This document shows, in pieces, positions 36,001 through 39,000 of a DNA stretch of 64,000 nucleotides. Position numbers: made by a program. Positions within the stretch are counted from its first letter, which is position 1. Each line of letters opens with the position of its first letter. Source of the stretch: an uncultured Mycoplasmatota bacterium (GTDB lineage: Bacteria; Bacillota_I; Bacilli_A; RF39; UBA660); assembly GCA_947643405.1 (NCBI GenBank), contig CANRVY010000001.1, forward strand, positions 31,852-95,851. Reading direction: 5' to 3'.

Positions 36001-39000
36001 CAGTTGCAAAAATAGTTTGTTCTGCTTCATTACGTAAGTCTGCTTCTTCTTTTCTTTTTTCATCAGCTTCACGATTTGCTTCTGCTTCTTTTACCATTTT
36101 GTCAATTTCATCATCACTTAAGTTTGTTGAAGCAGTAATTGTAATAGATTGTTCTTTATTAGTTCCTAAATCTTTTGCTTTCACATTTACGATACCATTA
36201 GCATCAATATCAAATGTAACTTCGATTTGAGGTACTCCTCTAGGTGCTGCTGGAATATTGGTTAATTGGAAATTTCCAAGTGTTTTATTATCAGCTGCCA
36301 TTGGTCTTTCTCCTTGTAGGATATGAATATCTACAGCTGGTTGATTATCTGCAGCAGTTGAGAATACTTGTGATTTACTAGTTGGAATTGTTGTATTTCT
36401 TGGAATTAATACAGTACATACTCCACCTAATGTTTCAATACCAAGTGAAAGTGGTGTAACGTCTAATAATACGATATCATTAACGTCTCCAGTTAAAACT
36501 CCACCTTGAATGGCTGCTCCCATTGCTACTACTTCATCTGGGTTTACTTCTTTACTAGGTTCTTTTCCTAATTCTTTCTTCACTAATTCTTGTACCATCG
36601 GAATACGAGTAGAACCTCCAACTAATAATACTTTATCAATATCTTTAGCAGTTAATCCAGCATCTTTTAAAGCTTTACGAACTGGTTCCATAGTAGATTC
36701 TACTAAATCGCGAATCAAATCTTCAAATTTTGCTTTTGATAAGTTTAAATTTAAATGAAGTGGTCCATCTTCACCTTGAGATAAGAATGGAAGTGAAATT
36801 TCTGTTGAACTCATACCACTTAAATCTTTTTTGGCTTTTTCAGCAGCTTCTTTTAATCGTTGCATAGCCATAGAATCTTTATGTAAATCAACCCCATTTT
36901 CTTTTTTGAATTCGTCTGCTAGGTATTCCATAACACGGTTATCAAAGTCATCTCCACCTAAGTTGTTATTTCCGCTTGTTGATTTTACTTCGAATACACC
37001 ATCACCAGTTTCTAGAATAGAAACGTCAAATGTTCCTCCACCTAAATCGAATACCAAAATCATTTCTGATTTTTCTTGTTTATCTAATCCGTAAGCAAGC
37101 GCTGCTGCTGTTGGTTCATTGATAATTCTTTCTACTTCTAATCCAGCAATTTTACCAGCATCTTTTGTAGCTTGACGTTGTGCATCGTTAAAGTAAGCTG
37201 GAACTGTAATAACTGCTTTTGTTACTTTTTCTCCTAAATATGCTTCTGCTGTTTTCTTAAGGTCTTCAAGTACCATAGCACTAATTTCTTGTGGTGTATA
37301 TTTTTTACCATCTACTTCAAATTTATGGTTTGTACCCATTTTTCTTTTTGCACTTGATACTGTATTTGGGTTTGTCATTGCTTGGTTCTTGGCTTTGATA
37401 CCAACAATTCTTTCTCCATCTTTTTTAAATGCTACTACAGAAGGAGTTGTTCTTGAACCTTCTGGGTTTGCAATTACTTTTGCTTCTCCTCCATCATATA
37501 CGCATACACAACTATTTGTTGTTCCTAAATCAATACCTATAATTTTACTCATATTTATCACCTTTCTCTTTCTGGCAAATTCATTGCCCATGTTTCTAGT
37601 ATTTTACAATACTTGTCTTTCTCTCTTTCAAATTCAAATCTATTTCTATGATTTCCTATATCATCATAATATTCCATCGTATGTCTTAAACAAACTTTAT
37701 CATCAAATTCTTCTAAGTCAAAACATTCAGGAATATTTGGAAACTTGTATTTTTCTTTAAACAAAATATAAATTCCTGTTTTCATATTTTCTTTATCAAA
37801 AGAGATATCATATTCTTTTATTTCATAATGTCCCTCACAGCTAGCTAAAGTATAATACCCTAATTTATTTAAAGTAGATACTGCATTCGCAATCCTAGGG
37901 TCACAAGAAAATATTTTTGGATGTTCTTGATATACTTCAAATGTTTCTTTATCTATAAAGTAGCATCGATCCATTATTCACTCACTTTTACCATAGCAGG
38001 TCTAATGACTCTATCTTTATATAAATATCCTTTTTGTAATACTTCAATCACCATTCCTGGTTCCATTCCATCTACATGTGCTGTCATCACTGCTTGATGA
38101 TAAGCTGGGTCGAATGGTTTATTATTTCCATCAATGGCTTTTATTTCATATTTTCCTAAAATATTTACAAAGTTACAATAAATCATTTTAAAACCTTCTA
38201 AGAATTTTGAAAGTTCATCATCTAAATTTTCATCATCTAAAGCGATTGCTCTTTCAAAATTATCGATTGTAGAAAGCATATCTTTAATCATATCTTCTCC
38301 AGAATACTTTAGTAAACGACTGATTTCTTCATCTTTTCTTTTTCGGTAATTAATAAAATCTGCTTTGCTTACTAATAATTTATTTTCTAAATCTTTGTTA
38401 ACCTCTTTTAATTCTTCTAATTCCTGTTCTAACTTGTTTGCTTTCTTGTTTTTTCCAAATAGTTTTTTATTTTCTTTCGTTTCACAATCACATGAGTCAT
38501 CTTGATGCTCACCACAATCACATGGCTCTTCTATGCATTCTTCACATTCACATGTATTTTCTGCATCTTCACAAGAGCAATTTTCACATTCACAAGTTTC
38601 TTTTTTCAGCGTTTCCTTTTCTTCCATTTTATACCTCCTTTTTAAAATTATATCCCTATGTTTTGTTTAATATAGTCGAGTAATGCAATAACTCGGTCAT
38701 ATTCCATTCTTTTTGGTCCTATTAAAGCAATTGTTCCTTCTTCTCCACCTAATGAATATTTTGTTTTAATCACAGTAACATCATCATCAAATTCGTTTTC
38801 ACTACCAATATAAATATTAATTCCATTGTCTTCTTCCTTAATATTATTAATCATACTTTGGTCTTCAAACTTATTCATGATTTCTCTAATTTTAGTTGCA
38901 TCATCAAATTCTGGTTGCATTAAAATATTTTTTGTTCCTGTTACTCTAACATTCGCTTCTTTTGTAAAGTCACTAAATGCACTATAGAAGGCATTATAAA

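Follow-up and report, generated by a model that had tools for sequence, protein, structure and literature searches.

Why a GrpE protein should begin with an acidic segment crowded with cysteines, and what such a segment might do at the Hsp70 machine, is the question raised by the grpE gene in a 64,000 nt stretch of contig CANRVY010000001.1 from an uncultured Mycoplasmatota bacterium. This whole stretch is referred to below as the window; its G+C content is 29.6% and the standard genetic code is in use. GrpE is a core and intensively studied part of the Hsp70 cycle and is already known as a thermosensor. A disordered N-terminal tail is common to every GrpE and is normally rich in glutamate. Judged from its sequence, the tail encoded in the window most probably equips the Hsp70 machine with a metal-binding segment of a kind not yet described.

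The GrpE domain and its cysteine-rich tail

The gene lies on the minus strand, within a heat-shock operon, and was divided into the parts listed here together with the evidence for each.

37974..38627, minus strand: grpE open reading frame (ORF), 217 aa, beginning MEEKETLKKETCECENCSCEDAENTCECEECIEEPCDCGEHQDDSCDCETKE
38472..38627, minus strand: codons 1–52, acidic Cys-rich tail, predicted to be disordered (sequence counts, coil with pLDDT 44–56, tails in relatives)
38451..38471, minus strand: codons 53–59, Lys-rich linker NKKLFGK between the Cys block and the coiled coil (alignment)
37974..38450, minus strand: codons 60–217 and stop, canonical GrpE with a long helix (60–107), a helical bundle and a C-terminal beta domain (PF01025, PRK14140, 4ANI, pLDDT ~90)
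38634..38638, minus strand: Shine-Dalgarno sequence GGAGG, 6 nt 5' of the grpE ATG (sequence)

The identity of the protein was examined using profiles, structures and a structural model. The Pfam GrpE profile PF01025 covered residues 56–217 with an E value of 1.4e-49 and 168.4 bits against a cutoff of 25.8, and the NCBIfam GrpE equivalog PRK14140 gave 153.5 bits against a cutoff of 137. The solved GrpE structures 4ANI (E = 6e-35) and 1DKG (E = 3e-20) were both aligned, with residues 1–52 lying in none of the alignments. A model was calculated with AlphaFold2 from a 100-sequence alignment, a procedure in which metals cannot be included. It revealed a confident GrpE fold for residues 60–217 (pLDDT ~90), comprising helices at 60–107, 111–131 and 137–159 and six strands, while residues 1–59 were modelled as coil with pLDDT values of 44–56, as would be expected of an apo-metallothionein-like segment. 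All of the features checked (profile, fold and operon) were found, and the protein is a bona fide GrpE.

Residues 1–52 contain 11 cysteines, at positions 12, 14, 17, 19, 26, 28, 31, 36, 38, 46 and 48, forming five CxC pairs and a lone C31, together with 16 Glu and 5 Asp (21 acidic residues). The twelfth cysteine of the protein, C151, is inside the GrpE domain. A first-pass annotation of the window had described a normal GrpE with a metallothionein-like cysteine cluster on its N-terminal tail, and both halves of that description are borne out, by the profile match to residues 56–217 and by the five CxC pairs. Its coordinates for residues 1–50 (38478..38627, minus strand) and its peptide were exact; its count of 13 cysteines in about 50 residues was too high. 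The background frequency of cysteine, over all 19,763 residues that the window encodes, is 1.07%, and at this rate the probability of at least 11 cysteines in 50 residues is 5.5e-12, or ~1e-7 after correction for every 50-residue window. GrpE alone carried such a cluster: none was present on another real ORF of the window, nor on one from 80 related loci, about 0.5 Mb in all.

The tail must be translated, since the Shine-Dalgarno site is strong and the next in-frame ATG, GTG or TTG after the grpE start is M113, leaving no usable start before it. An alternative start codon or a mis-annotated ORF was ruled out by the same observation. An alternative genetic code was also ruled out: TGA serves as a stop codon and the arginine codons are ordinary, the window containing no tRNA genes. 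At least 20 contigs, the products of independent sequencing runs, encode the identical GrpE protein within the same operon, which excludes a sequencing or assembly artefact.

Distribution and variation of the tail among relatives

The distribution of the tail was examined by three samplings. Among the best 120 homologues of GrpE (54–100% identity), 118 had acidic Cys-rich N-terminal tails with 5–19 cysteines, the exceptions being one His/Pro-rich tail and one plain tail. As the tail itself could bias a search with the whole protein, the GrpE domain alone (residues 53–217) was then used as the query against 1.84 billion cluster representatives (50%-identity clusters). In the closest ~65 representatives (at least 40% identity), 14 carried Cys-rich tails with 5–39 cysteines, several others had His-rich or mixed tails and the remainder were plain and rich in Lys and Glu; the Cys-rich tails vanished below about 40% identity. 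A species scan with one genome per species gave the 80 loci (labelled L001–L080), throughout which the synteny hrcA-grpE-dnaK was kept. At least 4 tail cysteines (maximum 23) were present in ~36 of these loci, and 42 had plain tails with zero cysteines. All 80 derive from metagenome-assembled genomes of uncultured gut, rumen or digester organisms, labelled Bacilli, Tenericutes, Mycoplasmatota, Erysipelotrichaceae, Firmicutes CAG:321 or Clostridium sp. CAG:762, the nearest being 'Bacilli bacterium ABMPRH_22_1'. Across all relatives sampled, Cys-rich tails held 4–39 cysteines.

A quick, rough neighbour-joining tree of DnaK and HrcA was made from 68 genomes (the window and 67 related species genomes), 32 of which have Cys-rich tails. 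Most of the tailed species fell in one large clade with internal losses, and the others in three smaller groups. The first-pass annotation had allowed for the extension being absent from close relatives, as an artefact or a strain-specific insertion, and had called for its conservation to be checked in orthologues. That check, now run, gave 118 tailed proteins in 120 homologues and identical copies on the at least 20 independent contigs. The tail is neither strain-specific nor an artefact; it is conserved as a compositional feature shared by hundreds of gut Bacilli relatives.

The tail and the domain behind it have changed in different ways. In relatives with at least 83% identity the GrpE domain is nearly invariant and indels make the tail variable, so that whole proteins measure 200–226 aa. 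Between the window and the nearest species genome, L001, the DNA identity was 96.7% for hrcA, 94.1% for dnaK, 90.5% for the GrpE domain and 55.8% for the tail, and the tail accounted for 51 of the 53 columns with gaps along the 4-kb alignment. Within the tail, all 8 aligned cysteines were retained, 4 of them through synonymous TGT/TGC differences, and 11 of 25 other aligned residues were changed, with the caveat that alignment of Cys-rich sequences is somewhat biased towards pairing cysteine with cysteine. A further protein (P0273), from the same 90% cluster as the GrpE of the window, has an L001-type N-terminal block, MEEKETCGCGNCNCEN, joined to a window-type tail, which suggests recombination or modular shuffling of tail segments.

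The spacing of the cysteines was measured in 155 distinct tails, with composition taken from the first to the last cysteine. These segments were 31.6% Cys, 30% Asp/Glu and 3% hydrophobic. Adjacent cysteines (CC) were observed 106 times against 498 expected at random, CxC 757 times against 341, and CxxC 106 times against 233, the last making up 6.7% of the gaps. The most frequent arrangement of pairs was CxC-x3-CxC, the x of CxC being polar and variable (N, T, E, G, D, K or H). Odd and even cysteine totals were equally common (76 against 79), so designed disulfide pairing is disfavoured.

Histidine takes the place of cysteine in a number of orthologues. The tail of L030 has 22 His and no Cys, that of P0125 at least 22 His and no Cys, and those of P0142 and P0181 are mixed; the HEHKHEECKCHEH repeats of L014 and L015 belong to the same series. 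Repetition within tails is also seen: HEHKHEECKCHEH is repeated in L014 and L015, with three copies in L015 as a protein-level tandem repeat expansion (3001–3420); L020 (3001–3735) has CDCEPCECTEENNCGCIEDS approximately four times and 23 cysteines; and P0159 has repeats of CTCEDCxCECGCEDGK, with 39 cysteines in a GrpE of 286 aa. Composition is thus kept and positions are not, a pattern in which selection would act on ligands and not on sequence. Retention of composition without positions, the favouring of CxC and avoidance of CC, the near absence of hydrophobic residues and, above all, the replacement of Cys by His point to selection for metal-ligand capacity, not for a defined fold or switch.

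The hypervariability of the tail in length and sequence, which accounts for nearly all indels of the operon, also bears on neutral low-complexity drift, by which a slippage-prone acidic tail would have gathered Cys codons that were tolerated in a disordered and dispensable segment. The tandem-repeat expansions in L020, L015 and P0159 fit such drift, as do the frequent losses and the plain Lys/Glu tails of 42 of the 80 relatives. However, cysteine at 1.07% of the local proteome compares with ~32% in 155 diverged tails, the spacing preferences are strong, and Cys codons change synonymously where neighbouring residues change. The plain tails of relatives hold no cysteine at all, and His-rich variants arise in the same slot. 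Tandem Repeats Finder detected no DNA tandem repeat in the tail of the window, and simple slippage is rejected there on that ground. Taken together, drift appears a decidedly improbable account.

Proposed role of the tail at the Hsp70 machine

The Cys to His replacement in orthologues and the non-random CxC spacing lend support to metal binding. On these sequence patterns the tail is somewhat more probably than otherwise a stress-induced metal buffer or sink at the DnaK/Hsp70 machine. The standard disordered tail of GrpE would have been converted to a metallothionein-like metal-ligand module, with GrpE itself unchanged, in the order acidic CxC block, Lys-rich linker and normal GrpE. The thiolates, or the imidazoles in His-rich orthologues, would bind soft or borderline metal ions in multinuclear clusters, and 11 cysteines could hold ~3–4 divalent ions per chain and double that per GrpE dimer. 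Zn(II) would be the most probable ligand, because all-Cys and all-His tails can both bind it, with Ni(II), Cu(I) and Cd(II) also possible. Through control by HrcA, more chelating tail would be made under proteotoxic stress, metal-induced misfolding included, and the docking of GrpE would place the tail beside the DnaK substrate-binding domain. Metal ions block protein folding, an effect counteracted by DnaK/DnaJ/GrpE, while metallothioneins keep free metal low (PMC4030994), and the disordered tails of GrpE gather around the DnaK substrate-binding domain, where their local concentration is high (PMC12915176). A chelator on GrpE would make sense because metals block folding, GrpE tails surround the DnaK substrate site and HrcA couples abundance to stress.

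The same location could serve a redox- or metal-gated switch, in which oxidation of the thiols or loss of Zn would alter the contact between the tail and the DnaK substrate-binding domain and slow substrate release or nucleotide exchange during stress from oxygen, oxidants or metals. Within GrpE it is the tail that reaches this domain, and GrpE tails can occupy the DnaK substrate site and adjust affinity (PMC12915176). Redox precedents also exist within the GrpE family: the Cys87 disulfide of vertebrate GrpEL2 and the oxidation of Met155 in yeast Mge1 are cases where stress chemistry hits an Hsp70 exchange factor through sulfur residues (PMC12987570). The hosts are gut anaerobes, to which oxygen is a stress, and a KKLFGKNKK motif is conserved after the Cys block in the near clade. 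The known systems, however, use one residue or four fixed cysteines in a structured region. Hsp33, whose Zn-Cys centre includes a CxC motif, keeps four fixed cysteines, whereas the 4–39 cysteines here are unfixed, disordered, replaceable by His and subject to tandem expansion. No Cys position is conserved clade-wide, the totals are as often odd as even, the acidic surroundings disfavour reactive thiolates and His-only orthologous tails cannot be thiol switches. A switch of this kind is considered unlikely.

The first-pass annotation had proposed metal or redox sensing coupled to nucleotide exchange. This part of it gained no specific support from tails with such variable cysteine numbers, unconserved positions, frequent indels and expansions and many losses, and pure thiol-redox sensing conflicts with the His-only tails. 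Because the number, positions and presence of the cysteines are so variable, a capacity trait, either buffering or sequestration, fits better than a defined switch. A stronger form of the proposal, in which metal loading, or oxidation releasing metal, would fold or unfold the tail near the DnaK substrate-binding domain and thereby control when substrate is released and nucleotide exchanged, with GrpE as a direct metal or redox sensor, is more doubtful still. Two specific motif types were also rejected. A Hsp33-type Zn switch (four invariant cysteines, CxC...CxxC) is excluded by positions that are unconserved beyond close relatives, by counts varying from 5 to 39 and by the low share of CxxC among the gaps. 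A DnaJ-type zinc finger (CXXCXGXG) is excluded by the lack of any PF00684 match in the tails, the motif being present in the genuine dnaJ of the window.

Comparison with the GrpE of Escherichia coli indicates what the tail may have kept and lost. The E. coli tail (residues 1–33) is likewise a disordered, Glu-rich segment before the coiled coil, placed to reach the DnaK substrate-binding domain, which its motif IIM binds, the tails tuning affinity (PMC12915176). It has no cysteine and its hydrophobic IIM is flanked by Glu, whereas the tails described here are only ~3% hydrophobic and their sole candidate motif, KKLFGK, is flanked by Lys and restricted to the nearest clade. Linker residues K54, K55 and F57 are invariant among near relatives, and KK[LIF]FGKNKK is kept in the nearest ones. 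The linker motif is possibly a DnaK-binding pseudo-substrate, a candidacy that we infer from these patterns. KKLFGK was rejected as a general DnaK-binding motif, being replaced by poly-Lys outside the nearest clade.

With the tail read as a metal buffer or sink, one of the closest known systems is HspA, the GroES of Helicobacter pylori, which is also an essential, abundant, heat-shock-regulated co-chaperone with a lineage-restricted disordered extension of metal ligands. The His/Cys-rich C-terminal extension of HspA binds Ni, has a role in storage and detoxification and is dispensable for the core chaperone function (PMC3856676). HspA differs in being a GroES and not a GrpE, in carrying its extension at the C terminus and not the N terminus, and in having mostly His plus 4 Cys, with Ni destined for hydrogenase; the tail described here has mostly Cys in CxC pairs, is strongly acidic and is able to reach the Hsp70 substrate site. 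The GrpE tail shows the HspA-type pattern of a His/Cys-rich disordered extension in one group of gut Bacilli, plain in the rest, on a fold that is not that of GroES. By this comparison it is an analogue, not a homologue, of the HspA extension.

Resemblance to metallothioneins (SmtA/BmtA, MymT and the eukaryotic proteins) lies in ~20–30% Cys, CxC motifs, an almost complete lack of hydrophobic and aromatic residues and disorder without metal. SmtA contains a CACEPCLC segment, which the CxCxxCxC start of the tail resembles. Metallothioneins are small free-standing proteins, whereas the tail is the N-terminus of a 217-aa GrpE, and likewise in all relatives; it is also far more acidic, and its positions are unconserved even among close relatives. 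The tail would work like a metallothionein but belongs to no metallothionein family. HypB and UreE have unstructured tails that bind Ni or Zn. Together with SlyD, the tail of which binds Ni or Zn (PMC3856676), they form a third comparison, as folding helpers or metallochaperones with unstructured tails of variable length rich in His, Cys, Asp and Glu. They differ in serving Ni-enzyme maturation, and no such pathway is linked to the operon described here.

Several observations weigh against a role in metal buffering. No metallothionein profile of Pfam (PF02069, PF00131, PF12749 and others) matched the GrpE of the window at E <= 0.1, and in a Pfam scan of ten diverse tails the best metallothionein matches had E values of 0.05 to 4.4, far under the gathering scores. 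Thiol pKa is raised by so acidic a setting, which classical metallothioneins do not usually have, and the choice of metal is a guess. A joint DnaK-GrpE metal site was rejected, as no Cys or His column of DnaK correlates with the presence of the tail, and no metal-homeostasis gene was found linked to the operon. About half of the related species are without a Cys-rich tail, and parsimony on the rough tree gives at least 12 gain or loss changes. Any benefit of the tail must be conditional given these absences and changes, and the tail is probably a conditional, dispensable trait.

A further alternative is the handling of iron, in which the tail would transiently hold Fe or Fe-S clusters for Hsp70-assisted transfer. 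In mitochondria the GrpE homologue Mge1 acts for the Ssq1/Jac1 Fe-S system, the cysteine ligands of the tail stand among carboxylates that suit Fe(II), and the organisms, which are anaerobes, possess many radical-SAM and Fe-S enzymes. Against this, the operon has no Fe-S assembly gene, CxC arrays of variable count are not typical cluster-binding motifs, the His-only variants fit poorly and nothing specific points to iron. We give this alternative very little credence.

The heat-shock operon and the meaning of the tail

The operon is tightly packed on the minus strand in the order hrcA, grpE, orf138, dnaK, pepF and dnaJ. Its features other than grpE are as follows.

39651..39721, minus strand: promoter TTGACA-17-TATACT between two CIRCE-like inverted repeats, predicted HrcA operators (pattern search)
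38648..39637, minus strand: hrcA, 329 aa from the ATG at 39637, heat-shock repressor, first gene of the operon
37558..37974, minus strand: orf138, function unassigned by profile, between grpE and dnaK, its start overlapping the grpE stop (ATGA)
35726..37552, minus strand: dnaK, 608 aa from M14 of the listed ORF, Hsp70 partner of GrpE
33881..35677, minus strand: pepF, M3 oligoendopeptidase F, between dnaK and dnaJ
32767..33864, minus strand: dnaJ with an ordinary CXXCXGXG zinc-finger domain

Regulation by HrcA and CIRCE brings induction by proteotoxic stress. As grpE stands in an operon with a promoter and two CIRCE-like operators, it is taken to be the housekeeping, HrcA-regulated copy. The window contained 3 CIRCE-like matches against 0 in shuffled sequences. 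The third, an inverted repeat with 2 mismatches at 44352..44378, is just 5' of a ClpB-like AAA+ gene (42175..44298), a position which suggests that HrcA also controls this disaggregase. The pepF gene directly follows dnaK in most of the 80 related loci and is on that ground an apparent conserved member of the heat-shock operon in this lineage.

The product of orf138 has 138 aa, and the gene, which ends 5 nt before dnaK, is part of the operon. Neither Pfam nor NCBIfam gave a match, and homologues in the database number only 19; the protein has an invariant LNKxGYxTxASCxGH motif. Its AlphaFold model (pLDDT 79, pTM 0.72) gave no significant fold match in the PDB, the best being YbjN with E = 0.04. 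The gene is fast-evolving, with 77% DNA identity where dnaK has 94%. It occupies the same slot in 5 of the 80 loci, one with a Cys-rich and four with plain tails, and was rejected as a partner of the tail because its presence does not track tail type.

Elsewhere in the window, 9 kb from grpE, a gene at 47985..49271 (minus strand) encodes a 428-aa protein of unusual architecture, a cation-diffusion-facilitator efflux transporter (Cation_efflux and ZT_dimer) with a GNAT acetyltransferase domain fused at its C terminus. Other genes encode a type IV pilin-like protein with an Ig-like surface domain (31134..32558), a Fic-domain protein (44403..45242) and a HipA C-terminal kinase-domain protein (52037..52903).

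A full-text literature search found no description of Cys- or His-rich GrpE tails, and neither zinc nor metals in general are mentioned in a review of GrpE-like factors from 2025. In public records these proteins go simply by the name 'nucleotide exchange factor GrpE'. The binding of the GrpE tail to the DnaK substrate site has itself been shown only recently. The practical importance of the tail is uncertain; its natural series, with 4–39 Cys, mixed Cys and His, His only or neither, is a ready-made mutagenesis set, and a synthetic gene would make the proposal cheap to test. The tail recurs across uncultured Bacilli of the gut and rumen, a large group whose genomes are small and AT-rich. Should the proposed role hold, it would be the second independent case, after HspA of H. 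pylori, of a bacterial co-chaperone with a metal-binding tail, and a metallothionein-like tail on GrpE would form a direct tie between metal homeostasis and the main protein-folding machine.

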